DNA of 64,000 nt from Psammoneis japonica (GCA_008632985.1 QPGO01000037.1:310001-374000), one strand, 5' to 3'; positions 1-64,000 are shown, numbered from the stretch's first letter. Numbers and translations: made by a program. The notes: generated by a model not told the origin, from the letters alone.

Positions 1-2400
1 AAATGATGGAAGTGTTTGGCTTTGTTTTGCTCTTGTTCCAGTTCAATGATGTCTGCCACTCCTGCAAACTGAGCTTTTGTTTCTCTGTGTTCATGTGGTT
101 TGATGTTGAAGAATGCAGCACTCTTCTTTGCCCCCACCAAATGTGGCTCTTGCCTGTTCCTCCAATCTTTCTCCTTCCTGTCCCATCTCTTGTCTTCCTG
201 GGATTTGTTGCTGTCTTTTTCAGACTCTTTGTCTTCTTCACAATGTCTGCAACATTCTTCCTTGACTTCTTGGCACTGTTGGTGGTGGGACTGGATCTTT
301 TGTCAGCCGGTGTCTGGCTTGCTTCTTCACATTCATCACATGAGTCAGGTTTGTCTTTGCAGTCTTCATCTTCTGACTTGGTTTTGCAGCTGGCATTGTT
401 GGGCTCAGTTTTGTTTTTGTCTTTGTTTTTGCTGTCATTTTTGACTTTTGTTGCTTTTGTTGTTGACCACCCCTGCAGTCCAGACAGCATCACCCAGATT
501 GTCTTGACATTTGCCCATGAATTTGAGCTCTTTGATGCCTTGTGATGTGGCCATCTTCTCAATGGCTCTCATGTGTTCATGTCAGTCAAGGGCACACCAG
601 CGCACTTGTGGGGATTCAAAAGCTTGCCCGAGTGCAGGTTCATGACTCAGTGGACACCCTTGGGCAAATCAAAATGTGGTTGCAGGTAGATGCTTTCAAT
701 GCCATGTGCATCCATGGTGTTCATTGGGTTGTTTTCAACATGAGATGGCACAAAGTCCCCAAAACAGAGCTCAAAGTGTTTGTTGCAGGCAAGGTTCCTT
801 CATTGCATGTCAGTGAAAAAACTTTGGACATGACAGTTGTGTTCTTGAACACAGCATGCTTGCACATCAGTTTGGGTGTCATCTTGTGTGGTGGGTTGCA
901 CACAATGGCTTCAGTTTGTTCCTTGCTGGTCTGCATGCTCCCCTCAACTTTGGGAACATGGTCACTTGTGTTTGTGGACACCAGCTCTAGATTTGTGCCA
1001 TCTGCATCTTCTGTCAGCATGGCCTTGATCTCAGGATCACACTCAACAAAGTTGATCTTGAAAAGAGCTGTGTTGCGCTGTTGGAGAATCATTGTCCAGT
1101 GCATCATAAAAATGTCAGCACACTTCTTGGACTTCAGTCTCACTCTCTTGATTGGCACTTGATGGTCTTAACTGTTGTGCACAGCAGCTCAGTGCTGCAT
1201 GCTTTCACAGTGTCAATGCAGAGGATCACACCTTCTCTCTGCATCTTGCAGGTCTCAGGTGCTGGCATGGCTGTGATGTTGTTCCTCTCATGGGATGATG
1301 TGCACATTTGGTCTTGTCTTTTAGCATGTCTGTTGGTGGACCCCAAATGGCTGCCATCCTGTCCACATCTTAAAGTGCAATGGACCTTGTTTGAATGCAA
1401 AAACAGCTTGAAATCTATCACATTTGGTGCTCCAGCTATGAAGCACAGCCTGAGTGCTTGCTCAGCATTCAATGCCTCCCTCTTGGTGTGGCCTGTGGAA
1501 CAAGCTTCACTGTCAAAACACCACAGCTCCAGATGCACTCCTGTGCTCTTTGTTGCTCTCCTTCTGCTGCTTCTTCTTCTTTGACAGCATGCTCGCCGGC
1601 AACTCACTCTCTTGAAGATCTTTTGCATGGTCATAAAACTTCTGGCTTGGCATGGGGGTGTGCATCCTGGTGTCATTCACTTTGAACACCCCAACTTGCT
1701 TGCCAGTTTTCTTGTCTGATGGTTGAAACTCATCCACCACTCGGTTGTCACATGTCATGCAGAACTTGCTCTTCATGTCCTTTAAACTGAAGATGTTTGC
1801 CTTGCCATTGCATTCTGGATGCAAGCTTCACATCCCCCCATCCAGACATGGCACAGTTTTTGTCTGAAGCACCTGCTCCTGCACTTGTGGACAGAACAAT
1901 CTTGGTCTTTGCCAGTCACACATTGTGCACCACTCTCAGGCTTGCCACCATGCCAAGGGCAGAGCCATTGTCAAGGATGATTTCATCTGCCTTGATGCCC
2001 ATGTTGGCTTGGCTCAGTCTCATCTCTGGTCTCTTGATGCAGTTTTGCTCCTGCTCTGGCTGCAATGGGTTGGTTGGTTGGATCTGGTGGTGTGTTGACA
2101 CTCATGTTCTCACCATCCACCAACAAGTGGTCTTCATCTTGTGTGTCTGTGCATTTTTGTTCTTGTGTGTTTGCGTGCATGACTCTGTCCCCTGGTGCCC
2201 AGCTTCTTTCCTGTGGTCTTGTGAACCAGCTGTCAAATGCCATGTCATTTCAATGCTTGCAGTCTGGGGACTTGTGATTTGGTTCACCACAACAGCAACA
2301 CACTGTGGTGTTTCTCTGGTTGCCCTTCTGGGAATGGCTCTGGTTCTTTGGATTGCTGATCACCATTGACCAACTCCACAGCATGCTGAATCACATGAGT
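1..2400 (-). mobile_element. Degenerate Ty1/Copia (CoDi-like) pol relic: protease, GAG-pre-integrase and integrase
   Basis: Minus-strand fragments EIILDNGS (protease), ANIFSL, and NTSDHVPKVEGSMQTSKE (integrase EHVP..ER motif) in Copia order. Strong TA and CG depletion. Ends not defined. Confidence 0.65.
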
Positions 2401-4360
2401 GGCCAAGATGGGAGAAGGGCTCCAACCAAAGAGAAGTCAGCCCCAATGACAGAGATGTGAGACAAGATCAAGCCAATCAACCAGCCAAGGTGGAAAGCAG
2501 ACTCTGGCACACTGGCATTCCAAGCATGGCACACCACTTGTGGAACATTTCTCCACAATCCATGACTCCCATCACAGCCCCAGGAGGCAGATGTAAAAAA
2601 AGAGCATTTGGCACAGGCATGAAAAACTTCAGAGTGAAAAGGGAGGGATTGACTCTGTTTTCAGTGTCACTCTGCACACAACCTGAATGTCATTGTCACC
2701 TTTGGAGATGACAAGAAAGGGGATGAATGTCCACACACCATGGTGTGGTCATGCACGTCAGTGGACACTGGAGCAAAACTTGGCTGACAGATGGCATTTG
2801 AGAAGTGACCCCTGCACACCCATGAAGGGGCCATTCTGACAAAACTTCTTCAGATTTTTTCTTGCTTCCAAGGCAAACAGTGACCAGTGCACCAAGGCAA
2901 GAACCCCAACTTGACATGCAGCCATGTTCCACATGCAGGATGAACCAGATGTTGTGCAGACCCCAGTCTGTCAAATTTGCCAAGAGGGCCCAGAGCTGTT
3001 GAATGTGCAACATCTGGTTCCTGTCCACTGGTGCACATGCAAGAAGAGCCTTCAGCTGGCAGGTCATGAGATGAGGCAGGAGAAGGAAGCTTGCACCCCA
3101 CTGGGGCTGCCCCCCCCCCTGCAGTGTCTCATTTTCTGTTGGATGCCAGCATGCTCTTGTGAGACAACGTGGAAGCTCCAATCAAAGAATGCAGCAATGA
3201 TGCTGCATCATGAATGTTGCAACTGAGTTGGACATGGGGCAAAGCCAAGCCCAAATTTCAGCAGGGCCATTGAAGGTCACCCCGTGGGCTGAGACCCTGC
3301 ACCCAACCAAGGCTTCTTGACTCTCAAGCACAACTGGCTTCCACCTTTCACTTGATCTTCTGCAGATTGTCGGCAGGTTCAGAATCCCTTGCTTCTGCAG
3401 CACATCCACAAGGCCCTCAGCAAAGCTGCCCTGAACTTCTTGCAAGTGATCCAAGCAAGCAAGGATGTCTGCATCCAAGAGTGGAGGGTTGGCTTCAATG
3501 GCAGATGCATGCAACGCGAGCTGATCATTTCATTGGAGAGTGCTGAGGCGCTCCATGTCCATTCACAGGTTTTGGATTGGCTGCTCAATGGAAATCCTGG
3601 AGGGACCAAAGACACTGTTGCAAGAGAGAGCATCTTCTTCCACATCCAAGCTGTGGCTTCAACCTCATGGACACCTGCTCGGGCCCCAAAGGATTGTCAA
3701 AACCCAGATTCCCGCCCGATGTGGAGGGCAGAGTTGCAGGAAAGGACTCAACTTGGAATGCCAGCCACAAGTCTGTGATGAACTTCCACTGTCCAATGGC
3801 AAGCCAAGCTGGGTCTGCAATGCCACAGATGGCAACAGCAACGATGGGAGCAATGCAGCCCCGTTTGTTGTTCGCAGACTTTGTGGAGTTGCCCGTGTGT
3901 CTTCGCATGCCCACGTGGTTCAAAGGTGCAACTTTTTGTGAGTTGATGTCAGAGTGGAGATCAAGAGGAGTCAGCAAGTGTTTTAAAACACAAGAATTTC
4001 ATCACCTGCAAAAAAGATGAATCCAATGCGTGGTTGATGACTAGATGTTGGGGTCAATGCGAGCGCTGCAGCAGCAGTCGTGGGTTCTTGGGTTCCATCC
4101 GAATCCGGAAACAGTCATTCCTGAAGAACGTGCCCTTCTTCATTTCCTCAACCCAACATGTTGCAATTCAAAGTGCTTGACAACATTGAGGGAAACGAAC
4201 AATTCAATGTCGGAAGACATCATGACCAACAGAATCACGAGTGTCGACGGCGACTCAGTGCCAGTTGGACCCGGAGGTGCAAAGTGCAGTGCCGGCAGGC
4301 ATTCATGCCACAAGTGCGGGTGCGGCAGGAACCCAGTGCGACAACTCTCGTCTGACAGTT
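2400..4360. mobile_element. Unclassified hypermutated repeat relic
   Basis: Same TA-poor, TG/CA-rich composition as the identified TE relics, ending sharply near 4360. No family motif recognised. Confidence 0.4.
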
Positions 4361-4801
4361 AGGAGAAGTCGACTGAAGGTCGAGTAGTAAACGTATTGCT
4401 AGCATTAGGGCTAACAATAGCGATAGAATCGATAAAGCTGCTAATGTCTTGTTACACTAGGTGTTGTAATTGTGAGCAGAAAAAGAGGAGAAGTTCTCCA
4501 AAAGAAGGCGGGAAACCGCATACGTAAGTGAAGCGCGCGCGAATCGCGCATGAGTTCGTACTGTGCTGGCACTCGCATCATCCGTGCATCTCGAAGCTAC
4601 CGGTACCAGCTAGAGAGGGTACCAACCGCAAAGCAACTTGACGAGTCGTCCCTTTGTTAAAATGTCAGCGCGTTGCAGGTCTGTTGCGATCTTGGATACA
4701 GTAACTCTAGACGGTAGGAATCGAACAAACCATAAACCTGCCTCCATCCAACGTCAGCTACTTTTTTCGTCTGGTGTTGTATGTCATCGAAGATATCGAA
4801 G

Positions 4802-5571
4802 ATGAGGGATTGTGTTTTCAGCCTTCTTGGGGCGTGGATGTTTGTCTTCCTGTCATCTGGTGTGACAGATGGGTTTTCTGTTTCTCCCAGTAGAATATCT
4901 TCGTCGTGTTCCACATCAAAACTGCAGGGCAGCACCGGGAATAATGAGGCGCCTGCATCGCCTGTCCCGTTCATCAAGACAATGGTAGCCACGGTAGCCC
5001 TCGGCACAACTCTAACATTTTTATCTGTTCCTGTTCAAGCATTTGAGGAATCGGATTTTGCTAGTGACACCGTGATGGAGGCAGTCAAATCTCTCGACAG
5101 TGCAAACGGTGACGCCGACAAAACTTTTGCAGCCTTTGAAGGCATCGCATCCATAATTACAGAGGGTCGGGGAGTTGGTGGGCAAATCAATTATGAGGGT
5201 GTAAGTCTCGAGCGTGGATACGTCGCTGATGAGGATACCACAGTTTATAATCCCGGTTTGTCCTTACTTACGGAATCCGAGAAGGAGCGCCTCGTCAAGG
5301 CGGCACAGGATGCTCGATCGGTGCCTTGTCAAAGTCCACATGGACAGACAATAATCAGGTGGCATATGAATTCCTGAAAGAAAAGCTTGACCCCCTTCAC
5401 ATGGCGGAACTTCGGGGGTACTTGGGCTTTGTGCCCGTTCTTGGTGCCGTCTTGTACTTGGCGTCGCTTGCCGTGCAACAGTTTGCTCGTGATTTGTTCC
5501 CGGCCGCCTACATTGCCTCGGCAGTTGTAATCTTTCTTCCTATAGCAGTGCTAGTGTTGCTTGGACAATAA
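4802..5571 (+). CDS. Hypothetical plastid/thylakoid-targeted membrane protein, one frameshift near 5325
   Basis: Signal peptide ending TDG-FSV (ASAFAP-like), second hydrophobic leader ending VQA, two C-terminal TM helices. ORFs 4781-5377 and 5326-5571 overlap in different frames. Confidence 0.6.
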
Positions 5572-6160
5572 AGAAAGAAACAGTGATTTAAATTAAACAA
5601 TGCTCCTGCTAGAGAATACAGTACAGGTATTTGTATTTTCAATCTCTTTGTCCTTTCTTAGCAACCCCGAGACTCACAATATCATGCAGATTCTCTCGTG
5701 AGCAAGGAATTAAAACACGTTCAACCCCAGAATGTTGATCTACGGTCTTTTCCACAATATCATGGTCAGTAAGTTCCTCCAAAAACTGACGAAGAATGGC
5801 ATCGCTTGGCGTGACCATGCGTTGGGTGTTCCCGGCCGCCTACATTGCCTCGGCAGCTGTAATCTTTCTTCCTATAGCAGTACTAGTGTTGCTTGGACAA
5901 TAAAGAAAGAAACAGTGATTTAAATGAAACAATGCTCCTGCTAGAGAATACAGTACAGGTATTTGTATTTTCAATCTCTTTGTCCTTTCTTAGCAACCCC
6001 GAGGCTCACAATATCATGCAGATTCTCTCGTGAGCAAGGAATTAAAACACGTTCAACCCCAGAATGTTGATCTACGGTCTTTTCCACAATATCATGGTCA
6101 GTAAGTTCCTCCAAAAACTGACGAAGAATGGCATCGCTTGGCGTGACCATGCGTTGGGTG
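5495..6160. repeat. 332-bp tandem duplication covering the 3' ends of two convergent genes
   Basis: 5495-5826 is repeated at 5827-6158 with 4 mismatches and TG microhomology at the junction. Confidence 0.92.
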
Positions 6161-7716
6161 CATTCCTTCCTCCACGCCGTGTATTCCACAGGCTCATCCC
6201 CTTTGGTTGATGCCTTCAACTGAAGACTGGCCAACAGCTGCAGTGATTCAGAAATTCGTGGTGCGAGAGATTTCAACACGTGCTGGAACTTGTCAAGGGA
6301 GACTCCACCTCGTTTTTTCCGTGATTTTGCTGATGATGCGAGCGCCTTGGACTTTTTGAAATCCTGGTCGTCAAAGCCGTATTTGATTTCCTCGTAGTAG
6401 GGCTTGAATGTATGTATTTCGTGCCAGATCCAAGAGAAGTTGGCGCGGGTCGTTACATCCCATAACACGCCCAAGGCGTTGACATGATCGACGCTTGATA
6501 TCAAACGGATGGCCCTTGTACCTGTCGCACGCACCGTAGAACAAACAACAAGCGCGGACAAGGCTTGCTGCGACAAGCTCCGTCTCAATCCTACACCGTC
6601 AACATTGTGCAACACCAAAAATATCGGCCTCTTTCGTGTTGCTGCCAGCTGTCGAGAAATCGCCACGGCTCGTTTCACCACTGGGTTTGTTGAAAAACGA
6701 CTCGACCGTTCATCCATGCCAACTTGTCGTCCCTCTTCAAGTGACTTTATCGAAGGTTCCCTCCCTTCAAGAAACTGATTTACAAAGACATCCAGAATAC
6801 CTTCTATAGTAACTTCCTTGTTGTACCCTTGAATAGCCAACACGTCCCCGTCGCATTCCAACCGTTTGGCAAACGTCTTGAGAACATTCCGCTTTGATCC
6901 AAATCCAACGAAGAGTAGCGAGTGATTGGTGGAAAGCAAGTAGGCGAACTTTTCCATTTGCCGATTGCTTGGACGTGGATCAGACTCACAGTCTTTCTTG
7001 GCGCCATTGCTCTTTGATAATTCTTGGACGCACTGCGAAGGAAGTGGCATTTCAAGCTTTTCTTCTCCGTCAGCTTTGTCAGAAGTTGCCGTGGCTTGGG
7101 CAGTAGCATTGCGGATTTGACGCTTTTTCATGTACATATCAGCACCAGGTTCGAAGATCGTTGTAGAAGCTCTTTTGCGCTTGCCAGTTGTGCGGGTACC
7201 TGGCTTTTTCTTTGCAACAGCAGCATCATCATCTTCTTCTGTTGCTTTCTTTTTCGATGTGGAGGTCTCTTCAGTGTCACTAGGAGCTTCTTTCTCGGCG
7301 TCCTTGGGCATTTTCCTAGCTTCTGGTTCTCTAGGCCTCCCATCATAGAACATTCTCGTCAAGAGATCATTGCGAAGTGCTTCGTGTCGTCTTCTCCTTT
7401 GTGTTGGTATGCTGTAATGTGGTGCCACTGGCGGTGCTTCCAACGAGCAGAACTGAACGCTCGGTATTGCAAACTTATCAAAGTATTCCTGTAATTCTTT
7501 GGATTCGAGGCATAATGGAGTATCACCGTGTACGGAATCAAAAGGCGGCTCCTCGTACTTGTGGCCATCCCGTTGACGATGCGTCCAGTTGTTTGCAGCC
7601 AGAGAACTCCACTGAAGTGTTTGACCTCCTGTTTTTGTTCGTAGTAACCACGATGATAACTCATCCCGCTCATCACCACTCAACTCATTGAGCGACTGCG
7701 GTAAGTTGTCCGACAT
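5971..7716 (-). CDS. ORC2: Origin recognition complex subunit 2
   Basis: LLFVGFGSKR, LHNVDG, SVDHVNA..WD, HTFKPY and ELTDH motifs. Likely start MSDNL at 7716, although the ORF is open to 8049. Confidence 0.88.
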   Translation of the reverse strand: MSDNLPQSLNELSGDERDELSSWLLRTKTGGQTLQWSSLAANNWTHRQRDGHKYEEPPFDSVHGDTPLCLESKELQEYFDKFAIPSVQFCSLEAPPVAPHYSIPTQRRRRHEALRNDLLTRMFYDGRPREPEARKMPKDAEKEAPSDTEETSTSKKKATEEDDDAAVAKKKPGTRTTGKRKRASTTIFEPGADMYMKKRQIRNATAQATATSDKADGEEKLEMPLPSQCVQELSKSNGAKKDCESDPRPSNRQMEKFAYLLSTNHSLLFVGFGSKRNVLKTFAKRLECDGDVLAIQGYNKEVTIEGILDVFVNQFLEGREPSIKSLEEGRQVGMDERSSRFSTNPVVKRAVAISRQLAATRKRPIFLVLHNVDGVGLRRSLSQQALSALVVCSTVRATGTRAIRLISSVDHVNALGVLWDVTTRANFSWIWHEIHTFKPYYEEIKYGFDDQDFKKSKALASSAKSRKKRGGVSLDKFQHVLKSLAPRISESLQLLASLQLKASTKGDEPVEYTAWRKECTQRMVTPSDAILRQFLEELTDHDIVEKTVDQHSGVERVLIPCSRENLHDIVSLGVAKKGQRD

Positions 7717-8358
7717 GGTCAACGCGAGATTATCAACGATAAGGTCCACTTTTCTTTCCGTGCGTTGATGTAGCCGCCATGGCTTGCGCTGATTTGGATT
7801 GGCATTTTTTTTCGATTTTCGATCTTCACCCATAAAGCACAATTGCCGAACAATCATAGCTCCAAATACCCGTTTACCGGTTACCGTTTCGAAGTTACCT
7901 GGAATTGGAATGGAGCAGGTTAGGTTAAGCAAGTAAGAGGACAGAGTCGCAGACATGGCCAAGCAACCTGAAACTATTGTGTATCGCAAGGTAAAAGACG
8001 TTGAAGATACGTTAATCAATACGACATGGTGAAAGTAAATATTTTTCATGGCATCAAGCTTTAAAAGACAGATCTACCCAGACTTCCAGATCTCAGGTTC
8101 TGGTTCTCTCTCTACCGGTAGAGAGAGCGCTTTGTGGGACGACTCATGCGTCTATAAACCTTGATGATTGTACTGCATCATAGTCCTACGGTACGGTACA
8201 GAGACTGTGTATTGCAAAGTGGTAGCGCATTTGCAATATACAACTAATGCAGGCTTCCTGGAAGTCGAATAATGGATCACGATCGAAGAATTCAAACTGA
8301 ACAAAAAGATAAGCTGCGTCGTTCTTTTCTTTTATTCGTCTGAGATTCTATTCTCGCG

Positions 8359-8697: not shown

Positions 8698-8948
8698 GGG
8701 GTTGCTTGGTTTCTCCTTTTTCTAGTCGAGGTCAAATTGTGAGTAGAAAAATGAGGCAACAAGTGAGGCGCAATATCTTTCGCTGTGCATTTTTCGCGAT
8801 GATGCACAGCGTGTAGATTTGTACAAGGATTCACTACTAAGAAAGCAGACGCAACTCATGACCCTTGTTCGTGACTCCCAAATGTCGCGTTTGTCCCGCG
8901 GCTGACGTGTCTTCAGATGCTACAATAAGTCTAGTTATCCATATCATA

Positions 8949-9266
8949 CTACGAATTGCTGAACAATTGCGCGATACACGTGCCCGAAGGGTGATTGTTG
9001 CTTCGGGCACGAAATTCGTGCTTCGCGCACGTAGAGACCGTAGAAAATATACCAGCATTCGAGAATGTCCGATTTGTGTAGATCACGTAGCACAGTACCA
9101 CAGAGGTCATTGATGAAATTACTTCAACGACTCATGCGACTACAATGATATTTTCAATACCATATACTATGTAGAATGGACATCTGCGCGAAGGAAGAAT
9201 GTTGCTTCGGGCAACGATATTCGACCTTCGGGCACGTGTATCGCGCAATTGTTTTGCAATTTGTAG
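8949..9266. mobile_element. Tc1/mariner-type MITE with TA target-site duplication
   Basis: About 42-bp imperfect TIRs (CTACGAATTGCTGAACAATTGCGCGATACACGTGCCCGAAGG and its reverse complement), flanked by TA at 8947-8948 and 9267-9268. Confidence 0.8.
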
Positions 9267-9566
9267 TATTTAGGGAATTAGTAAGTGGAGCGACACATGC
9301 ACTGTAGCTCCAGAGCTACTAGAGCGTCTATAAAGAAGGGTATCTTCGCTAGAGCTTACACACTTATCCTATGACGAGTGCCTACTCTTTTTGCGAAGAT
9401 ATTTTCCCAAGATAGGCCGCATAGCATGGTGCTCCCTGTTGCAGAGACTTTATGCCATAGTCGGATCGGCGGCAAGTGTTTGGAAAGCTACACGTCAACG
9501 CAAAGCATCACAGTAGCGTGTGAACCCACTCCCCTTCTTTTCAAAGTCTCCCCTATACAATTCTCG

Positions 9567-12600: not shown

Positions 12601-13130
12601 AATTTTAGAGCAAGTCCTCTGTCTCCATATCGACGTCATTTTTTGCCTACATGTCGATGTCCCCGTACTGTTATGTGTTTTTGTGTGGAGAACTTGCCTA
12701 ATGAACTACGTGAAATTTGATCGACGGCTTGATCGTCCAATGGTAGGTGGACTACTCCATGCAACACAAACTATGTTAGATGAAGTTTTCTTCTCCCTCT
12801 GGCTTCATGCTACCGTACAGTGTATTGTGTATTGTTGCGCCGCGAGGGAAAAAAGAAAACACGAAATCCATCAACGAATCGGTCATTTTTGTCGGGTCAT
12901 TTGAAGGACGTTTTTTGGTTGAGGTGCTGAGGTCTGCCGTTACCGCGTTTATTTAGCGTTCACCATAAACCGTAACCCAAGAGACCAGCCAAACAAAGCC
13001 AAGCGTGGGCAAGAGCAACATATAACAGTTGCGTTGCTTCCCCCCCCAAGACACTGTAAATGAGTTGCTGTAATTTTACCGCTATTCATGCGATCATTCG
13101 CAATGTTGGACGTATTTTCCTGATCCTGAT

Positions 13131-19947: not shown

Positions 19948-20372
19948 GTTTACTTTATTTCCTCTTTTGTCTCCCTGGAGTTTCAAGAAATTTAAATTGT
20001 GATAAGATATGATCGATGTGAGGCAAAAGAAGTGAGGCGCTGTGCAATGTTTGCACTTCCTGCACGACGCGTAGAAATGTACGACAGTTTAGTACCGGAA
20101 AAGCGCGCGAACCGACTCCATGACTGAAACAAATGTCGCGCGTGACGTGGCACTTCAATCGGCGTCTGATTTCGTCCGTGTACTACAGTAACTGACGGTT
20201 TATCGTCTGTCTTCGTCCGAACGCCACGATTTCTGCGGGGAACGCGGAATGCAATTTTCGACACAATGATGCCGAAGTGAGTTGGCGATTTGCGTCGGTT
20301 GACGACTCGAGAGTAGCATTATTGATTGTAATTCATGGCTCTTAGTTTGTAACAAGTGCAAAAAAGAAAAAA

Positions 20373-52300: not shown

Positions 52301-52950
52301 ACTCATCTGATCACAACAAATGAAAACACTGCCAAATCACATCTTCAGCTTTGTCAGTTCACCAAGAATTGGGTGACACAAATCACAAAGACAACAAGCG
52401 CACAAGACAGAGCATGTTGCTGATGACAGTGCATTGTGCAATGTTGTGCACTCTCCGCCTGTTGCACCCAACCATTTGTGCACCACCAGCACCGTCTTCA
52501 AGCTGATTGGAGAGGTGCACAATGAAGATGATGCTGATTGGACATTTTGCGAAACTTGTGCAGATGTTGCAAAGCCGCAGTTTGCTGGCCATGAATGTCC
52601 AAATGAAGCAAAAGAGCATTGCGGATGTCCTTGTTCTCCCTGACATTTTGTCGAACATGACATCATTGTGTTGTTTGAAGCACCCAAAATTTTTGCTTGA
52701 TGTTTGCAAACAAAGAGACAGTGAGACACAGCCGTTCAGCAAAGTGCCCAATTTGAGTCAATGTGCATTTCACTGACCACCCTGGGCAAGTGACACAAAA
52801 GTTTTATTTGTGACTGACTGAGTGTTGCAGTGTCACGCACCCTGTTTTTCTGACACACAGTGTCAATGATCCTGTCAGATGCAAGAGAAGCCATTGCAAT
52901 GGGCTTTGCTGAAAGTGACCTCGTCACCTTGGTCTCTCTCTCACAACTTT
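46330..52950. mobile_element. Block of unclassified, heavily hypermutated repeat relics
   Basis: TA nearly absent, CG strongly reduced, Tyr almost absent from all six frames. No family motif recognised with confidence. Confidence 0.5.
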
Positions 52951-53221
52951 GTTGTCACTCAAGTCTTTATCTTGTTGGACCTTGCACTGCAATCTCAGTT
53001 GACTTAAGAACTGGATGGAGACTGGGAACGATGCAAACAGATTGACCAAACATGAGAAAAGAGAACTGCGAGCAAGAGCAGCAGCTTGGGCGATTGACCA
53101 CCAGAAACAAGTGCAGCAACGCAAACAACACAAGCAGAATTTGGCAAGCCGAGTGCATCATTTGGAGTCAAAGGCAGAGTCCTTGGAGAGGACTGTTGTG
53201 CAATTGTGCTCCATGTTGCAT

Positions 53222-56163
53222 GATGAGTGACTCGTTAAAAGAACCCTGTGTTGCCTGTGAGGGGAAATTTGAACATTCTGATTTGGAGGAGGACGTGAAA
53301 TTGAGTCAGTCGTGTGATGATGGCAGCACTTGCACTCAGAAGTGTCTGCCCTTTGATGGTGCTCATGGCATTGAAGCTTTGTTGTTTGTTGAGGATCATT
53401 TTTGTAAAATTGCCATGAAGTTGGAGTTTGCAGCTGGTGAGGAATTGTTTGACAATTTTGAAGAAGTGTTGACTGACACTGCTGAGGACAAGTGGGTGAA
53501 CTTGACCGATGCTGTTGCCAATGCTGACAAAACTGTTGCACATTTTGATCAAGAGACGAGTCATTTTCATCTGTCTCATTGTGACAATGAGGCATGTGAT
53601 GCTGTGATTGAATGCTTGCCAACCTTGAAAAAACCACTCAAATCTGAAGCGCAGGCACACGCTGATTGTGTGGAGACCCCAACTTGCCATTCCAACAAAT
53701 CACCTGGAAACACTCCTCAAGCTGACAATGCTCAGAAGAAGAAGATGATCTTCGACAGCTTTCCTTGTCTGTGGCACAAGTGTGCACTCAAGCAGTCGAC
53801 AGCTGATGAGACAGTCTTGCTGAGATCATCAGCCCTCACGTGAACAAAACAAGAAGTCTTCCTTTGCCAACAAGAGTGACGACAAGAAGCAGGACAAGAA
53901 GTGAGTTGGCAATTCCTCATCCTCTCAAGCTTCAAAGCAAAGTTGAGGCAACAATGCTCAAGCTGATCCAGAGTCCAGATGCCCAGCACATGCCAGCCAT
54001 GACCACAAGTGGAAAGATTGTGTTTTGAACCCAGACAGCCAAAATGTTGACAAAGGACAGACCATGGAGGTCGTGGTGGAGGCCATGGAAACTTCCAAGG
54101 CAGAGGTTTGCAAGGCCGAGGAGGTCATGGCAACTTCCAAGGTCAAGGACGTGGCAGCTGCGGCAACCAAAGCAATTGTGGTGGCCGAGGTTGCGGCAAC
54201 TGCCAAGGCTCTCAGATTCCCCAAGGCGGAGGATCCTGTTGTCAAAATCAATGTGGCACCCAAGCCAACTGTGACACCCAAGGCTGTGGAAATCTGTCTG
54301 GATCAGCTCCTCCTGGTGGCTGGCAAATGGAGTTGCACCACTTTGATCAAGGAGGGCCTTGTGAGTTACGAGGTGGAAACGGGTGCAACCAAGGCAGTCG
54401 CTTTCCTCAAAGCCAATGCAGTTGGCACAGTTGATGAGGGATGGAAGTGCCTGAGTCAGAGTGTGTCACTCAATCCTTTTGTGTTTTGTGCAATTGTGAT
54501 GAACACATGTGTTTTAATGTTGATGAAAGTGTGGGGGACCTGATGGAATCCTGTGCTGTGAATGAAGAAGAAATGGGCAGCGCCTTGGAGTGCGCTGCAC
54601 CAACCCCAAAAACTGTGACTCCCAAACCATTGAATGTGGCATCTACAATGTTGATGGCAGCACACACAACGCACAATTCAAAATCAAGAGAGCAAGCAAG
54701 CATTGCATGTGTTGTTAGATTCAGGAGGCACTGACACACTTGTGCATTCTTGAGTTTTGCAAAGGGAGCCAATCTGACTGTGAACAACAAGGGACAACTG
54801 AGTTTTCAGACGGCAGCTGGATGGCATGAGTCCTCCCGACATGCAATCATGAAGGATTTGGTGCTTCCCAAATTTGACAAGTCCAAGCAAGTTGATGGAT
54901 TCGTGGCTCAAGCATTTGATTTGCTGTGCAAGTGTGGTGTGATGTTGGGCCAAGACTTCCTTGCTCAAGCCAGCACAGTGTTGGATTTCTGGTTCGGAGT
55001 TGTGAAGTGGTTGGATGCTGCGATCCCGATGAAGCAACCCAATCATTGGAGCCAGGTTCAGAATTGGGTGGATGTGCCAGACGACCATGAGGAGGACAAA
55101 GATGACAAGGAATTGCCAGGTCAATCCTTCATGTTAGATGCCAAGTGTGAGAAAGTGTCGACCGCAAAAGTGGTGCAATCACAGACTCATTTGATGCAGG
55201 AACAACATGACAAATTCCAAACCGTGCTTGAAAAGCATGAAACTCTTTTTGATGGAACCCTTGGCAAATGCCCGCATGAAACGGTGCACTTGGAAGTTGA
55301 CCCTGACACTGTTCCCTTTCATTCTAAAGCCTGCGAAGTGTCCAAACAAGACAAGGCAGTCTTTAAGAAGGAGTTGCAACACCTCTGCAATGTCGGTGCA
55401 CTGGAACCAGTGGGACCAACAGAATGGGTGGCAGGAACCTTTGTGACACCCAAGAAGGATGGGCGAGCCAGGTGGGTGTCCAACTTTTGAGAGTTGAACA
55501 AGGCACTCAAGTGGAAAGTGCACCCTCTGCCAATCATTCAAGACATTCTACACTGACGATCAGGATGCAAGTTTTTGACCAAGTTGGACATCACCATGTT
55601 TTGTTGTCACACCAAGCTGGGTGACAAGTCCAAGAACCTTTGTGCAATTGTCGCCCCATTTGGAAAGTTTCGGCACTGCAGACCAGCTGTGGGTTTGAAA
55701 GCTTCACCAGATGTTGCTCAAGCCATCATTGAAAAAGTGGTAATTGGATTTGATGTTGAGGCCTGCATTGATGATGTTGCTGAATTTGATGATTCGTTTG
55801 ATGCTCACATGCGTCAACTTGACAAGTTGTTGTCCAGGCTGAAGGAAAACAACCTCAAAGTCAATCCACTCAAATGTGAGTGGTGCATCCAAGAGATGGA
55901 TTTTCCAGGCCATTGGCTCACACCTGCAGGAGTTCGACCACGGAAGAAGAAGGTTGACATGGTGCTGCAAATGCAGCCTCCTCAGAACATGACTCTTTCA
56001 TTGGTGCAGTGACCTGCTGTTGAAACATGTGGCCCCATCACTCTCATGCACTTGCTCCACTGACCAAATTGACGGGCAAAAGCAAATTGGAATGGACCCC
56101 AGAGTGTCAGAAGGCTTTTGAGGACATGAAGACTTTGACAATGGATGATGCCCTTTGGGTCCA
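53222..56163 (+). mobile_element. Degenerate Ty3/Gypsy element D (gag, PR, RT), 5' part, LTR not identified
   Basis: LKKP gag motif, LDSG protease, FDGTLG, PKKDG..RWVS, TKLD, PFGKF, and VEACIDD (YIDD). Confidence 0.88.
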
Positions 56164-56280
56164 TGACAGGATTTGAACAGGATTTAGGTGTGCGCGAAAT
56201 GTCGCGCGCTGCTCAGTTTACCGCGCACAGTTTTGTGTGCTCTTTGGTTCCGCGCGCACGCGCGATGCAGTTTGCTTTCA

Positions 56281-56610
56281 ACAGGAATCATTCGAAAATG
56301 TCGCAAGAGTCATAATTGTTGGCATTTTACACAAGGAAAAATGCCAAATCGTGTAGAAATGTACACAATGTCATACGAGAGGGTGATTGGGGCTACTGGC
56401 TTTTCGGGAACTCAATTGAAATGTTGTCTGACCAAGGGCATTTTGATTTGGATGGTGAAGAGCAATGCCCTTGGTCAGACAACATTTCAATTGATTTCCC
56501 GAGGAGTTGACATTCGAAATGCAGACGGGTGGACAGACTGACAACAAACATTTCTGGCACTCTTCTACACAACTTCTGCGTGATGACTCTGAGAGCCGAA
56601 TGATTCCCAG
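56281..56610. mobile_element. MITE of about 330 bp in the 5' LTR of element E
   Basis: Absent from the 3' LTR. TIR core GGAATCATTCG/CGAATGATTCC, internal inverted repeat 56405-56442 / 56464-56501. Confidence 0.75.
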
Positions 56611-56912
56611 TGGAGCCACTTTGGCTCACAAGAACAATGACAGCAGCCCGATCACTGCGAAATGCCTGACAATTGTCATGATTAAAAGCAGCAAATTTCT
56701 CTTGCAATTTTTCAGTCAACCTCAACAAAAGTTCAACAAAAGTTGCGCGCTTCAGTTCGCTCCAGCACACTTGTGCGCATGGCCAGCACTCTGACGTCAT
56801 GGTGTTGGCGGCACGAATCAAATGATTGCTTCCATCAAACGAGCAATGATCATCTCATTGCAATGAGGACATCAACCTGGAAGCAGTGGTGCTGTGGACC
56901 ACATGACGTGCA

Positions 56913-58058
56913 ATGCAGAATGACCCTGCGGATCAAAGAGCTGCTGCCCGTGTTGCCATTGGGGCTCACAGGGAGCTCGGATTGACACGTGCACGGCTCC
57001 CTGACCCATCGCGTGGTGGATGCCGAGGGCACCCAGTTTGGTTCCGTGAAGCGGAGCTGCAGCAATTCTTCAACGGTGATGACATCAGCACATCAATGCG
57101 ATCCATTGCTCGTTGGCGCAACCGACTGGATCCACGCCGAATGACTGGCAACAGTGATCGAACAAACTTGGTGGGCGTCGATCAATTCTTGATGTGTCTG
57201 TGCCTCATTGGTTGCCCACATGCCAATGAAGACAAAATCGCGGCATTCATTGCGGATCAAGGCGGAAAGATCTATGGACAAGCCATTGTTTCTAAGCGAA
57301 TGAAGGAGATGAAACTCACTTTGAAAAGAGGGTCTGCTGAGGCATGCCAGGCAATGACACCCATCAACACAGCCAAACGCGAAATGTTCTGGAGCATGCC
57401 CCCACCCCTTGGCATTCATCTTGTTGTGAGAAGGCGTCTTGCCGACTTTGATGAGTTTGGCATTGAGCTAAACCAAGTCAATCGAAAACATGGGCATGCT
57501 TTTGTTGGTTTGCATGTCAGAAAACTTGGGCACTGTGTCCGTGGTGTGAAGTTCACCGCAATTTTGTGTGTTGAGCCGGGTGACCCCCGACTTCCTCCCC
57601 ATGTGCACGGTGGCGCACAATGGCCTCGACGGTGGACAAGTGTGAGGTGAGCAGGAGGCACAGACCAATTTGCACTTGCTGATTTTGTCAACCAGGTGCT
57701 GTCTTCAATCGAGGCGAACCCAATTGCTGGTCTGGACGACCACCGAATTTTGATGTGGGACAATCTCAATTCTCATCTCACTCCACTTGCAACCCAAACA
57801 GTGGAGGGTCGCAATGCTCCAGGACATCGCTTTGAAATTGTCCAGAGACCACCCCACCAGCCCAAGGACGGTCCTGTGGAGCATGCTGTTTGCCAGATCA
57901 CGGACCGGCTCAAGGACCAGCTTTTTTCCATCAACAGCCTCCACGATCTGGATCAACAAATCCACATGGTTGCCGCCCAAGAGTTGCACGGTGTTGACAA
58001 CACCTTCCACAACTGTGGCTGCATTTGGAACCAGTGCAATGGAACAAGAATAAAGTAG
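56913..58058 (+). pseudogene. DDE transposase (DD39E spacing), one internal TGA at 57648
   Basis: HTH-like N-terminus, LADFDEFG, ILMWDNL..H, RPPHQPKDGPVE (P.YSP..NP.E-like). The two ORFs are in the same frame. Confidence 0.82.
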
Positions 58059-58099
58059 ATGGAGGTCCACTCTACAATGCTTTTTGCTGCTCATCAGAA

Positions 58100-60240
58100 C
58101 ATCAAATCAACGTCGACTAGTGTTGACAGCTTGTGCCACTGCCGGTGTCGTGAGAGGCACCAACAAACAGACACACTGTTTTCAATCAAGTCTGCCGTAC
58201 AGCCTGTTGCACATGCATGCAGTCGCGAAGATTCTCTTGACTGCAGTGCAATCTAGATGAACCCGGGACACTTTCAACACCTCCAGCTCAAGGCGATCCC
58301 GTGGCCACCTCAAGCGCAACTTCCGTGACGTCTTGCGAGCCCATTTCTTGCACGGCATCACTCTCAGCAACAGAGGTGACCAATTCATCACCTTGAACAA
58401 GATTGCGACAGAGCGTGCGGAGCTTTTTCCTCTCTACAAAATGCAGGAGAACAGAAAACAAGTGAGAACACAGATCAATTGCAAATGGAACACCAACAAA
58501 ACAAAAATGAGCACAATCTTACCCGGATTTGCATCAGAAAAGTTGGTCATGTTGCGAAGGGTTGCATCCATGACGCACTCAGTTGTGCTTTTCTTGGGAG
58601 TTTGGTGCGCAGGAGTTGCCAAGGCCTCGTCCAAAGCCTCCGGACTGCTGTCAAGTAAATCAATTGCCTCATCTTGAGGTGGAAATCTAGCAACTGATGC
58701 TCCTGGACCACCTGCACCTTGTGCTGCAATCAAAGGATCCAACCGATTATGGCAAAGACGGCTGTTGGCAGTCTGGCCGCTGTCGCCTCCGGAGCCCTTG
58801 CGTTCGAGCTGCCTCGCCTCACTCACGTGCCTGCGAGCATCGTCAATGTGCTCCCCAGCAGCCAAACGACGGCAGGGCTTGCCAAAAGCATCTGTGAGAA
58901 GCTTCTGAGCTCCCGTCATTTGTGGAACAACTCCATTGAATGCAGCAGCAAATCCCGCGATGCCGAGTCCTTCCAACGCGACATCACATTGGCTCCTGCT
59001 CTCGTCGCCACCCTGACTGGCATGCACCATGCCGTTCCCAATGTTGTCCCCAATGAGGCCTTGCAGCATTTCAAGCTGCCTCTGTGGTGCAGCCTCAGTG
59101 GCCTGAGTCTCAAAATCATTTAGATGCTTTTCAATGTGGGCATCCCCCATGATCTTGGTTCTCTGGATGCCGAGAAATGCAAACCACAGCATCAGCAGAG
59201 CCAAAATAAAAGAGTTGGCAAACAATGCCACCTTCAACAGACTCACCTCGTGCACTGCGCAGCTTGCATCGCATGGGCAGCAACAAATGGCACAGGAACA
59301 CATCTGTCCGTCGGGTCCACCGTTTGGGTCCGGTGCAAATCCGGGTTGTCCTCCAACCAACGCGCGTTGAAAGCAGCCTTCCCCATTGGGCCTCATCAGA
59401 CAGTTTTGCTTGCAACAGTGGCACGCAAGCAGTGCAGAATGAGTCTTGCCACACTTTGGCTTGTTGCCCTTCTTGCCGTTTGCTGTCCAAGCCGCAACCG
59501 CCTGCCTGTGCTTCTCCTTCACCGCGTTGTTCTTGCGGTCCACCTCTTCGTTGGACTCTACTTGCATCACGGCATCATGACCACAGCGAGCACATTCATC
59601 TACATGCCTTTTTGTCTCGTCCCACTCCACCATGTCCTGGACTCTCTGACCTGTTTTCTTAGCACCAGCACGTCGACTTGCTGCATTCTTGCTCGATTCG
59701 ACTGGTGCTTGGGACTGGACCTTCTTCCGGCAGTCTTCAACAAGCTTGACAAGCTGCGCAGCTTCTTCAGTTCTTTTCTCTCATGTCCTGCTGTTCATTT
59801 GCTGCTTGTGCTCTGCTGACATGTCAAGCAGTCTGCTTAGATCCAGGGTGCGTCATGTGCAGAAGTCTGTGTTCCAGCTGCGTTTGCGCACCGCAGTCGC
59901 CCCTGAGATTTTGAGATTGTTGATCTCGGCGACAGCATGCTCCTCTGCCGGTCCTTGGAAGTCAGCCTTTACAGGCCTCTCCACAAATTCTGCCAACAGC
60001 TTGCGTTTGGTTTCTATCTTCTCACACTGCTTCCTTTCAGTGCGGTGAAGCCGATGTCGTCTTCAACAACCCTGCAGCTCAACCGACGTCTGCTCCGGTG
60101 GCGGTTGAGCGGACGCTTCATTTTCATCCCCGGTGTGATTGGGGATGCCTCTCGTGCCTGTGTTGACAGTGGAGATGTTTGTTGGGAGCTGTGACATTGT
60201 TGATGAAGAGTGTGGACAAGACGAGCAATGCCATCATCCA
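58100..60240 (-). pseudogene. Accessory gene of the DNA transposon, Cys-rich and probably intron-containing
   Basis: 399-aa ORF 58434-59633 with CxxCGH, CHC..QNC, C.C..C.C.C clusters, lying between the TIRs. Boundaries approximate. Confidence 0.5.
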
Positions 60241-62340
60241 CCTTATGATGTGATGATGTGATTCTGTGTTTTTCGTGGTCAGTCAGTCGTCAGAATCATG
60301 TGCGCTGAAAAGTCTGCAGGTTCTGCGTGATGCAGATCGAACCGCGCCACTTTTGTTGAACTTTTGTTGAGGTTGACTGAAAAATTGTAAAAGAAATTTG
60401 CCACTTTCAATTGTGACAATTGTTGGGCATTTCGTAGTGTGCCGACTTGCACGTCTTTCGGCTCCTGCAACGGTCTCTGAGTGGAGACTCATCTGCCATT
60501 TAGATAGCAGCAAGGAGTTGTTGTTTGAATTCTTGCCATTTGCCTTCAATTTCTGTCAGATTAACAGTCTTGATCATTGTCAACCCATTGAGCAATCGCC
60601 ATCGTCGTCGTTGATTTACCGACGACGCCATTTCAATTCTGCGTGGACCTCCGTATATATTCTACGTACATCGGCAATTCTACGCGCATTCAATGCCAGG
60701 CATCGGCAGGAATTTAACGTCAACGTCAAGTCTCCTTACCGCTGCATATCTGGATTGATTATACTACCTTTTATCGCTTTAGACATACATTCAACGGTTA
60801 CATCCAAGTCTATCCTTGATCTTCATCCCTTCATATACCCATTCAACGGTTAACGGTCAAGAACCCTACATATTCAAGATCTTCGTTGCTAAAGACATAC
60901 ATATACATGTCTTCACGGCCAAGAACTTGAACCCATTTTTTGGACTGCGGCTTTGCCACCACTCTACAAGCACACCGAGTCTATTGCACCTGATCTACCC
61001 CGGACTACTGGTGCTCTACAGTTCCACTAGGTCCACGAGGATGACTGTGAGAGCAAGCAGCCGTGATTGCAGCCTGCGTTGGGGCGAGGGTGTTTTCCCG
61101 CGTTTGTTCGTTCGTCCACAGCGCCTGACGCCTGCGTCAACTGGCCAGCCTGATCAGGAAATCCAACCGATGTAAAACAAGAATGGTTCGGGGTCTTGTC
61201 CACCTCTGGTCAGCTTGCCTGCAGGGGTTTACAACCCGCTGCTCCGCTCGCAAGCAACCCAAAGCACCGCTGGCTGCGGGTTCGGATGTGCCGGCACAAC
61301 TCCACCGACCGGATGGGAAGTTTGGCACTCAACTACGAACGGGACAGCACAACCCGGCGACTTCTGATTTTAAGACAGTCCAAGATTTCAAGTCAAGTCT
61401 GGCTCAAGTCAAGTCTTTTTCAAGCCAAGTTGCAAGTCAAAACTCCGAGTCAAGACCGCGCTCTAGATTGGTTCCTGTCTTTTGTTTCCACTGCACCGTC
61501 CCCGTCATGGTTCTCACGTGACAGCAACAAACCGAAAGCTTTAAATGCATTCCAGGCACTGTGCTCAATCAAGATGATGACAGCCCTCTTCGTTCTGCCC
61601 TGTCCATCAACGGGATTGAATCGTGTGGAGGAGTTGTTCACGTTCTTGCCCACCCAAATTGACGCCCTCACTTGCAGAGACGGTGCCAATGTAGTTCCTT
61701 TGCCATGGACCTGCAGAAACCTCCTAGCAGCTTTGATCAGCTTCTACTTTGTCAAAGTTTGCAATGGTGATGATGTGACCAATGAACCCCAGTTGCTCAC
61801 ACCCGAGGAATTTCGCGACTGCCGCCTTGGTCCGGACTGCTTGACCTCTCTGGCCACTGGCGCAGCACCCTCTGCACCTGTGCCGAGTCCCTTGCCATCT
61901 AAACCAGGTGAACCCAGCGCCATTTTGACACCAGCCTTGCACTGTGCCGCCACTCAGGTGTCCCCAAGAAGTGGTGTCAGTCGCGCCCCGCATGTCTTGA
62001 CCAACCCGCCTGCAAGCAAACTCGGCCCAGTGCAGGATTGCAGCCCTTGCGCAGGCCCGCACTTCGAAACCAGTTGGGACACTCCACCAATGGCTTCCAA
62101 AGCTGCAGCCTTTGCACCCCGCAAACCATGTGCTGCCAACCTCCATGTGTCGACTGCTGTCACCCTTCACGACCTTCGTCAGGGAAGTGATGGAGATGAC
62201 AACTTGCTTCTCGTATCTCCTGATGGGGAGCCTCCTTTTCCCATCATTGAATCTGTTCACAACAGTTCAACCAGTTCATCAGATGGGGAGTTCAGGACAT
62301 CCAAGCAGCTTTGTTGTCTTTCGATCCTCCAAGCATCGCA

Positions 62341-62870
62341 CCACAAGATGAGGCCTCCTGATTGGATGCCCCAAGTCTCACACCTTGAGACCAGGCCTCC
62401 TGACTGGATGCCTCAAGTCTCGTGCCTTGAGACCAGGCCTCCGGATTGGATCCCTCAAGTCTCGTACCTTGAGACCAGGTCTCCTGATTGGATGTCCCAA
62501 GTCTCGCACCTCGAGACTGGGCCTCCTGATCGGATGCCTCAAGTCTCGTACATCGAGACTGGGCCTCCAGATTGGATCGTCCATGTCTCGTGCCTCAAGA
62601 CTCGGCCTCCGGATTGGATCCCTCAAGCCTTGCGCCACAAGACTCGGCCCCCCAATTGGATTCCCCAAGTCTCGCACCTCAAGACTTGGCCTCCTGATTG
62701 GATCCCCGAAGACTCGTGTCACAAGACTGGCAAGTCCTTTTGGATTCCAGAAGTCTTGCAGCATGGGACTGGTTGCCCCAATCAGACATCTGCAGTCTTG
62801 CACCACAAGATGTCTTGCTCCAATCTGATCCCCAAAGGCTTGCACCTTGAGACTCGTTCCTCCAATTGGA
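62341..62870 (+). repeat. 42-bp coding minisatellite (ETRPPDWxPQVSxL), about 12 copies, decaying toward the 3' end
   Basis: Repeated GAGAC..GGCCTCC.GA.TGGAT.CC.CAAGTCTCG units inside element E. Confidence 0.9.
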
Positions 62871-63695
62871 TCAGTCTCTCAGGAGATGCAGCTGAGCTTG
62901 CAATCGGATTGGTGGAACACAAGACCACTGCTTGTGCCTTTGAACTCATGCTTGCTCTGTTCCCCAAGTCGTGCAAACGCCATGCCACCCTGCTTGGGCA
63001 CTGCTCTGTTTTTCTGGCAGCAGCCCAGTGTGGCAACCATTCCAAGAACCAACAGACGGCTGTCATTCTTTATGACCTTTGCTCAGGGAGTGAAGGTGAT
63101 GTTAACTTGTTTGCATTGTCCTGCAATGTTGCCCCGCTGTTCAACATTGTCAACCAGACCAAGCTTTGCTCCTTCCATTGCAAGTGCGGATGTGGAATCC
63201 CACAAGATCCCAAGTGTGCCTTGAGCTTTGAAAAGCACAATGGCATCTGCAATTGGGGAGACACAGCTCATCTCAAGATGACCCACTTGGAGAATGCAAC
63301 GTTGCTCCAGGATCTTGATCCTTTCTTGTCTCCTCATGTTTTGGTGCTTTGACTCCAAAGTTCTTTGGTCAATCCGAAGTTGAATCTGTTTCTGTGACTC
63401 TTCAAGCAAACTGGGGAGTGACAGGATTTGAACAGGATTTGGGTGCGCGCGAAATGTCGCACGCTGTTTAGTTCACCGCGCACAGTTTTGTGTGCTCTTC
63501 AGTTCTGCGCGTGCGTGCGATGCAGTTTGCTTTCGAGCCACTTCTGCTCACAAGAATGATGACAGCAGCCCGATTGTGCCAACTTGCACATCTTTTGGCT
63601 CCTGTGACGGTCTCTGAGCGGAGACTCATCTGCCATTTAGACAGCAGCAAGGAGTTGTTGTTTGAATTCTTGCCGTTTGCCTTCAATTTCTGTCA

Positions 63696-64000
63696 GTCCA
63701 CCCGAATCACAACAAACCCTTCCACATTGATCATGCAAGATGGAAAGCTGGTGGTGCGTTGGTCACAGAAGCTCAGTGCAGCGCAGCAAAATCATTCAGC
63801 CATCAAGAAGGAACTTCTCGGGGCGGCAATGTGTTTCAAAGAATTCCGTTCTATGTTGCTTGGAGCTGATTGCGCTGTTTTGCTTGTCACAAAAATCTCA
63901 CCTTTTGCATGTTCAATTCTCAACAAGCACTCAGGTGGAGGCTCTTTTTGGAGGACTTTGCTCCAACTTTTGAGCATGTTGATGGCAAGGACAACCTGTC
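63696..64000 (+). mobile_element. Continuation of Gypsy element D (RNase H)
   Basis: HPNHNKPFHI, KLSA.Q.N....KELL, KEFRSMLLG and HKNL continue the reading interrupted at 56163. Confidence 0.85.

Follow-up and report, generated by a model that had tools for sequence, protein, structure and literature searches.

Genes, elements and blocks of the window

The window, the whole 64,000-nucleotide (nt) stretch of DNA analysed here, is eukaryotic and is composed of three gene islands (4.3–13.1 kb, 18.0–22.7 kb and 34.7–46.3 kb) with blocks of repeats in between. The repeat blocks, among them three long terminal repeat (LTR) retroelements, are poor in the dinucleotide TpA (TA) and rich in TpG and CpA (TG and CA), and the process that has shaped them is the subject of this analysis. 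The original prediction, made from the same DNA, knew of no description of such a pattern; that statement no longer stands, as the same signature is described for Bigelowiella natans in a 2026 preprint (Mettrop et al., bioRxiv 10.64898/2026.01.13.699255), which also proposes an ADAT2-like deaminase. A domain scan places ORC2, DUF1415, two PC-esterase genes, CLN3, two HMG-box genes and a cytidylyltransferase-like gene in the islands, and neither Rfam families nor tRNAs were found in the window. Dinucleotide observed/expected ratios (o/e) were computed per region, with the three host-gene regions of the window as the comparison. The elements, blocks and open reading frames (ORFs) referred to below are the following.

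1–4250: saturated hypermutated block, unknown element type; TA o/e 0.05 (13 TA), CG 0.14, TG 1.73, CA 1.91
5971–8049, minus strand: ORC2 ORF, 692 codons, uninterrupted
8946–9269: short MITE-like (miniature inverted-repeat element) repeat of 324 bp; inverted arms 8946–9029 and 9185–9269 (about 84 bp)
13131–18030, minus strand: LTR (Ty3/gypsy) element 1; intact gag and pol ORFs with reverse transcriptase (RT), RNase H and integrase domains
13131–13423 and 17740–18032: LTRs of element 1; target-site duplication CTGAT at 13126–13130 and 18031–18035
22751–24757: old saturated block; TA o/e 0.15, CG 0.35; stops exactly where the outer LTR element starts
24758–34676, minus strand: outer Ty3/gypsy LTR element, complete; LTRs 24758–25124 and 34310–34676
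28450–33626, minus strand: nested Ty3/gypsy LTR element, complete; LTRs 28450–28828 and 33248–33626; pol ORF of 1,034 amino acids
28829–30700, minus strand: part of the nested element that was spared, taken as its unmutated reference; TA o/e 0.95, GC 41.2%, Tyr 4.2%
30701–33247, minus strand: hypermutated tract of the nested element; TA o/e 0.25, GC 48.0%, Tyr 0.5% in its pol part
46400–64000: composite old repeat block; spared patch at about 60501–61000 with TA o/e 0.69–0.94

The composite block retains weak remnants of three domains, RVT_1 (55557–56009), DDE_3 (57651–58055) and RNase H (63472–63999), with E values of 6e-4 to 1.5e-6, two of the three falling under Pfam's own score cut-off. 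In the ORF domain scan no transposon domain was recognised in blocks 1–4250 (no convincing Pfam domain across its 14 ORFs), 22751–24757 and 46400–55500, which are repeats or foreign DNA of undefined kind. The view that all of these blocks are transposable elements thus holds for the three LTR elements and lacks a recognisable domain to rest on in the other three tracts.

TA depletion, TG/CA gain and CpG loss

Over the whole window the o/e is 0.42 for TA, 1.40 for CA and 1.34 for TG. The TA ratio is 0.60–0.69 in the three host-gene regions versus 0.25–0.33 in the interiors of the LTR elements and 0.05–0.19 in the old blocks, and the contrast between repeats and host genes that was first noticed is borne out in windowed values. 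The depleted sequence, 31.0 kb in length, contains 237 TA, against about 1,439 expected from the host-gene rate, and five successive 250-bp windows (23501–24750) contain none, with about 61 expected at the host rate (Poisson P ~4e-27). The depletion is confirmed as real and lies far beyond chance. Its edges are sharp, within 250 bp: the TA o/e is 0.06 at 4001–4250 versus 0.90 at 4251–4500. The original prediction described the element blocks as depleted throughout, apart from a few patches, which is correct for interiors (0.30 in element 1; 0.33 and 0.27 in the interior parts of the outer element) and not for LTRs, whose ratios are 0.55–0.83 (0.83 in element 1, 0.82 in the outer element, 0.75 in the nested 3′ LTR and 0.55 in the nested 5′ LTR, which is partly hit). 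The 3′ end of the outer element (windows 24751–25750) is likewise spared, at 0.66–1.09. Within the composite block the TA and CG ratios are 0.07 and 0.26 at 46400–56000, and 0.19 and 0.64 at 56001–64000.

Where TA is low, the o/e of TG and CA rises to 1.5–2.1. Across 128 windows of 500 bp, the frequencies follow the regression freq(TG+CA) = 0.232 − 0.83 × freq(TA) − 0.88 × freq(CG), with an R2 of 0.84, and the remaining 12 dinucleotides lie at most 0.14 away from their host values. The two coefficients point to two separate losses, of TA and of CG, each feeding TG/CA close to 1:1. A mass balance drawn from o/e values alone proved unreliable and was replaced by this regression. The original prediction overlooked the parallel loss of CpG, from which roughly half of the TG/CA gain of the old blocks derives.

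The CG ratio is 0.14–0.35 in old blocks versus 0.90–1.02 in host regions. The young mutated elements have a normal CpG content (0.79–1.27) despite TA ratios of 0.25–0.33. Because young elements have lost TA and kept CpG, and old blocks have lost both, the two losses are separable, and the removal of CpG looks like a second process, slower than the loss of TA. Most simply, the CpG loss of the older blocks is decay of 5-methylcytosine, which accounts for it and for part of their TG/CA gain, and which is unable to remove TA. A single enzyme acting on both TA and T-C-G was considered and rejected; TCG is the least depleted of the CpG contexts. We note that CpG o/e reaches 1.2–1.6 at 13424–17739, at 28829–30700 and in the LTRs, exceeding that of host genes; as it is high in unmutated parts too, high CpG is a trait of the element family rather than a product of the mutator.

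The loss of TA is visible in coding capacity. Tyrosine makes up 2.9% of residues in 12 host ORFs, a normal content as originally stated, versus 0–1.6% in nine ORFs or ORF parts of mutated tracts. TAA and TAG together number about 21 per kb in host sequence and 2.3 per kb in depleted sequence, with TGA going the other way (18.5 and 25.4 per kb, respectively), and within the nested element the GC content is 41% in the spared part and 48% in the mutated part. With TAA and TAG erased, the dead blocks are full of overlapping ORFs in several frames: those of 1–4250 and 46400–64000 span 110–730 codons and contain 0–0.7% Tyr and 3.9–8.3% Cys. Gene finders are likely to call them as false genes.

The direction of change is seen in comparison with 13 relatives of 53–56% protein identity, used as outgroup, in which a column is counted as conserved when at least 75% of them agree. 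Element 1 differs at 121 of 502 conserved columns, most commonly by Tyr to Cys (12), with Tyr to His at four. At the 25 aligned of its 32 conserved Tyr columns, it has 8 Tyr, 12 Cys, 4 His and 1 Phe. The hypermutated half of the nested element retains 2 of 12 conserved Tyr (3 are His and 2 Cys), and its spared half 11 of 16. Conversely, conserved Cys or His is replaced by Tyr nowhere in element 1 and once in the nested element. The four altered motifs named in the original prediction are all present, CIDD at 55764–55775 (plus strand), GHCH at 31018–31029, GKCEH at 30952–30966 and PNKR at 31123–31134 (the last three on the minus strand), and opposite the last three the 13 relatives read GYYH, WG.Y.Y and LN. 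Homology searches miss elements changed in this way, because their Tyr, Ile and Leu codons are rewritten.

Further copies of the family above 56% identity were not found in a protein search, nor were any in a first metagenome scan. A second scan returned 79 related metagenome loci with TA o/e of 0.42–1.08, the closest having a GC content of 40–43%, similar to that of the nested element's spared half (41%) and unlike that of its mutated half (48%); the peptides used contain Tyr and would miss hypermutated relatives, which leaves room for the process elsewhere. Judged by these loci, the element family as such is not low in TA.

The letters themselves were compared with k-mer contigs built from the public run X1, in which the word depth is about 57–63 over single-copy genes. 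The contigs reproduce 631–1970 with no other letter and 1957–3831 with one; they are 1.3–2.9 kb long, at depths of about 60–90x, and read TG/CA, not TA, in the depleted sequence. Noisy long reads would not yield so near-perfect a match, which speaks against the base-calling artefact raised with the original prediction; the match confirms the letters alone, not independent biology. An explanation with no mutator would have the low TA arise from sequencing or assembly of modified DNA, or be native to the blocks through selection or horizontal origin. A modified base in repeats could fool some base-callers, and the library type is unrecorded. However, the error-free contigs match the window, one element is half depleted and half normal, the 79 related elements found with Tyr-containing peptides have normal TA, conserved Tyr residues of the catalytic region are destroyed, and LTR pairs differ from each other as described below, all of which makes this explanation extremely unlikely.

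LTR pairs, sequence context and spared tracts

The two LTRs of one element are identical at integration. The three LTR pairs of the window now differ at 23 positions, four in element 1, four in the outer element and 15 in the nested element. These comprise 14 single TA↔TG/CA differences, eight positions in four TG↔CA doublets, and one CG↔CA difference; 22 of the 23 are therefore of the TA↔TG/CA type, with no transversions and no other transitions. All four differences in element 1 are TA↔CA, the outer pair has just two TG↔CA doublets, and the nested pair has ten single TA↔TG/CA differences, two doublets and the CpG change. (Differences not of the TA type number one in the nested pair and none in the outer pair.) In control comparisons within host DNA, TA-type changes account for one of four in a 332-bp tandem duplication and for 17 of 199 differences between the PC-esterase paralogues, 94 of which are transversions. 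The tandem duplication (5495–6160) is in exact phase, 98% identical, and takes in part of the ORC2 ORF at its 3′ end. The PC-esterase duplicates (11251–12300 and 18036–19098) are 78% identical and the HMG-box duplicates (37080–37883 and 39626–40354) 73–82% identical; both pairs have ordinary substitution spectra with plentiful transversions.

A related LTR family serves as the outgroup for the nested pair. Of its ten single changes, eight are polarised to loss of TA and none to gain, with two unpolarised. At two TG↔CA doublets the sister family retains TA, so the TG copy and the CA copy each arose from one TA, struck on opposite strands. Since LTRs identical at insertion differ nearly only at TA↔TG/CA, the data support mutation at the DNA level after insertion, from TA to TG or CA on either strand and aimed at mobile DNA, as was originally proposed. 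LTR identity is 96.0% in the nested pair against 98.9% in the outer one, although the nested element is necessarily the younger; its greater LTR divergence is incompatible with a clock. Seven to nine of the nested hits lie in the 5′ LTR, which adjoins the hypermutated half, and one in the 3′ LTR. Dating by LTR divergence is thus unreliable in this genome, where a nested element appears older than the element that hosts it.

The same spectrum bears on DNA polymerase eta (Pol eta), offered in the original prediction as one candidate source through error-prone repair and considered here as patch repair recruited to heterochromatin. This polymerase makes A-to-G changes at WA, TA included. However, the AA half of WA is kept, with AA/TT ratios of 1.22/1.24 in depleted blocks versus 1.12/1.10 in host DNA; 22 of the 23 LTR differences fall at TA/TG/CA with zero transversions; and repair errors would be hard put to reach an o/e of 0.05. 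The candidate is accordingly disfavoured, and we regard it as very unlikely.

Element 1 provides a recent case. A contig of 1,558 letters (depth 62.3) joins 13125 to 18031 and contains a single CTGAT, that is, the empty site. Element 1 is thus missing from at least part of the sample, and is a polymorphic, recent insertion between the two PC-esterase paralogues; this empty site adds to the support for change after insertion. Over 20 kb, contigs of at least 85% likeness show 444 transitions and 82 transversions relative to the window. Among the 40 variants listed out of 532, 22 lie in repeats: three TG/CA-to-TA singles, eight positions in four TG↔CA doublets, six CpG changes and five others.

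The sequence context extends beyond the dinucleotide. With TA taken as ancestral, the base 3′ of the mutated A in the single LTR changes is T in 11 of 14 and C in 3 of 14. The opportunities number 193 with a pyrimidine and 91 with a purine, and purine hits are zero (Fisher p=0.006); which base precedes the T makes no significant difference. TA survival in depleted blocks relative to host follows the same rule, at 0.02–0.11 for RTAY, 0.09–0.31 for contexts favourable on one side, and 0.20–0.67 for YTAR, TTAA being the highest. The extended motif is 5′-T-A-Y-3′ with the A mutated, or R-T-A on the other strand. It explains the survival of TTAA, CTAG and TTAG (the enrichment of TTAA, TTAG, CTAA and CTAG among surviving TA had been predicted correctly), and, on the sense strand, it fits the excess of Tyr to Cys over Tyr to His.

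The motif can equally be read as R-T-A with the T mutated, which is the starting point of the main rival explanation. There, a TET/JBP-type dioxygenase would oxidise the T of R-T-A in silenced DNA, 5-hydroxymethyluracil leading to 5-formyluracil, and mispairing of 5-formyluracil with G would give T-to-C changes, seen as TA to CA or TA to TG according to strand. The symmetry of the TpA step and the observed 50:50 products suit this route. Base J occurs at a TpA in trypanosome telomeres, and 5-formyluracil is mutagenic. Against this, neither such a gene nor such a modification was seen in the window, and the literature searched for the signature yielded no precedent for near-complete T-to-C change by this route. 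Oxidation of T is inseparable from deamination of A on these data, and we consider it unlikely as the source of the changes.

Sparing follows a pattern of its own. The process has passed over both LTRs in element 1 and in the outer element, the nested 3′ LTR, the 3′ end of the outer element, tract 28829–30700 and the 324-bp repeat. The last has a TA o/e of 0.87 and a very high summed contig depth, 3,525 in its bin versus 57–63 nearby. Repeats of 293–379 bp, like the 324-bp repeat, are spared, and interiors on the kilobase scale are mutated. That the process is aimed at repeats, as first stated, is therefore right for mobile DNA and too simple as a rule: the LTRs and this high-depth repeat escape, and in the available text of the preprint a single-copy insert is hit in B. 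natans (Mettrop et al., bioRxiv 10.64898/2026.01.13.699255). The mark that designates a tract is likely to be its length above a threshold, its chromatin state or small RNAs.

TG and CA products are intermixed at fine scale in a ratio of about 50:50. Their order along nine depleted blocks shows no clustering in a runs test (z −1.2 to +1.13), and such a random mix implies that there are no long one-strand tracts at saturation. An order of four TG followed by five CA in one LTR was not used as strand evidence, the runs test being negative in nine of nine blocks. Hyperediting of the ADAR type, fixed by retrotransposition, was rejected: runs of TG or CA do not cluster, AA is kept, and the LTR differences arose after integration.

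More generally, RNA or cDNA could be edited at UA/TA during retrotransposition, by an ADAR/ADAT-like enzyme on RNA or a deaminase of single-stranded cDNA, so that copies arrive already mutated. The far greater depletion of LTR-element interiors than of LTRs would be expected, cDNA gradients made by APOBEC3G also show LTR sparing, the 12:4 ratio of Tyr to Cys over Tyr to His amounts to a sense-strand bias, and the heavily mutated interior of a recent insertion would be accounted for. However, the TA-site differences within LTR pairs post-date insertion, the two strands carry similar numbers of changes that form no strand-coherent runs, saturation extends to blocks without an RT and to a DDE transposase remnant, and AA is not depleted, unlike the expectation from ADAR's preference for a 5′ U or A. 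In addition, the target in B. natans is, in the text available, non-retroviral chromosomal DNA (Mettrop et al., bioRxiv 10.64898/2026.01.13.699255). Editing of this kind is quite unlikely as the sole explanation, and editing before integration could make an extra contribution.

Proposed adenine deamination and comparison with known systems

The best explanation, to which we assign a probability of roughly 60%, is a host-directed rewriting of A:T to G:C at TpA in mobile or foreign chromosomal DNA, through adenine deamination. In this process TA would be converted to TG or CA in chromosomal DNA, on either strand. The targets would be mobile or foreign tracts of roughly at least 1 kb, with the process halting no more than about 250 bp from their edges and running to near saturation. 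Chemically, an enzyme would turn adenine into inosine, to be paired with C when the DNA is next replicated. This enzyme may be a TadA/ADAT2-like deaminase that is drawn to silenced chromatin or led to its targets by small RNAs. The natural tRNA target of ADAT2/TadA is A34 following U33, which is a U-A step. A separate, slower-looking step would remove CpG from older blocks by 5-methylcytosine decay. Elements would be disabled through missense changes (Tyr to Cys or His, and others) with their ORFs staying open, because A-to-G and T-to-C changes make no stop codons and erase TAA and TAG.

Several points weigh against this explanation. The window contains no gene for the enzyme (none of the 82 window ORFs scanned has a deaminase domain), and deamination is inferred. 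In the part of the report available, the sole ADAT2 assayed on DNA, that of amphioxus, prefers GAA for deamination of A and TCG for that of C (PMC10354150), unlike the pattern in the window, where TCG is the least depleted CpG context. The motif is defined by 14 events, all of which assume an ancestral TA, and its A-centred (T-A-Y) and T-centred (R-T-A) readings are indistinguishable. Neither the sparing of LTRs nor that of 28829–30700 is accounted for by the proposed process. Runs X1–X3 are from one sample, which may be the assembled one, and the library type is unrecorded. Finally, the depletion of element 1 may be largely inherited from a mutated source copy rather than made on site, because its interior has lost about 65–70% of TA and each LTR just 2 of about 23.

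Rewriting at TpA is known in kind, from one preprint alone. A literature search on the signature or on genome defence by adenine deaminases returned, besides that preprint, just work on repeat-induced point mutation (RIP), ADAR, APOBEC and base editors. The available text of the preprint (Mettrop et al., bioRxiv 10.64898/2026.01.13.699255) describes AT-to-GC hypermutation of viral inserts in B. natans, at TpA only. In mutation-accumulation lines, 231 of 302 new mutations fell in two integrated viral regions; nearly all of these were A to G or T to C, all of which were at TpA, at a rate about 1000x background and in 11 of 15 lines, the single-copy insert being hit during vegetative growth. The B. 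natans genome contains 124 TpA-poor, CpA+TpG-rich clusters, and its TpA-poor coding sequences are enriched in RT and DDE domains. The likeness to the window is close: only A-to-G and T-to-C changes at TpA, giving TpG and CpA, in foreign or mobile DNA, with host genes normal. Unlike those in B. natans, the targets here are LTR retroelements and other repeats, and the o/e reaches 0.05, versus 0.45 for the giant-virus region. The 3′ pyrimidine rule, the sparing of LTRs and short repeats, and the separate decay of CpG belong to this window and are absent from the preprint's main text, as available. In the window, a polymorphic insertion with four TA-site differences between its LTRs, and a nested pair more diverged than the outer one, may hint indirectly at a fast and episodic onset.

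RIP, in ascomycete fungi, changes C to T at CpA, creates TA and stop codons, and is triggered by duplication above a length threshold. The two processes share saturating, context-specific transitions in mobile or duplicated DNA, sharp edges, the escape of short repeats and a shift in composition. The direction, however, is opposite: here TA is destroyed, stop codons are not made, and GC content goes up, in one element from 41% to 48%. Fungal RIP was accordingly rejected as the source of the pattern, TA being lost rather than gained, GC up, and TAA+TAG down. AID/APOBEC enzymes deaminate C (C to T, or G to A), mostly on one cDNA strand. They resemble the process in the window in being deaminase-type hypermutation against mobile DNA with a short motif, and differ from it in that here A would be the target, neither strand is favoured, and it is chromosomal DNA that is changed. 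ADAT2/3 and TadA resemble it in targeting a U-A step, and enzymes with their fold can be brought to work on DNA; in filamentous fungi, mRNA editing is ADAT-based.

The host is probably an organism other than B. natans. Ten uninterrupted ORFs of 800–2,079 bp cover about 46% of host DNA, unlike the genes of B. natans, which contain 7.8 introns each on average, with exons averaging 159 bp (PMC12730881), although the GC content of about 46% is similar in the two. The best relative of the ORC2 protein is 34% identical, and the ORC2 clusters returned by an atlas search span several phyla. The CLN3 (battenin) gene (20346–21716) is spread over at least two reading frames, and some host genes therefore have short introns, though most ORFs here are uninterrupted.

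The window probably adds a second host lineage. It also adds saturation on LTR elements, the in situ proof that LTR pairs give, the T-A-Y rule, a pattern of sparing and the separation from CpG loss. If true, a natural sequence-specific A:T-to-G:C mutator acting on mobile DNA would amount to a genome defence of a new class, and it would be a candidate for an adenine base editor found in nature. More tentatively, the host may lie outside the chlorarachniophytes; if so, rewriting of A:T to G:C at T-A-Y could be a widespread eukaryotic defence, the functional mirror image of RIP, carried out by a natural adenine editor acting on both strands of chromosomal DNA and well ahead of CpG decay, with elements disabled through missense changes and their ORFs kept open.

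A small tandem array in the composite block lies on the plus strand at 62323–62716, inside the ORF at 61196–63352, and consists of 9.4 copies of a 42-bp unit that codes for a 14-residue repeat. At a single dinucleotide position, the ten units read are CA in four, TG in three, TA in two and CG in one.

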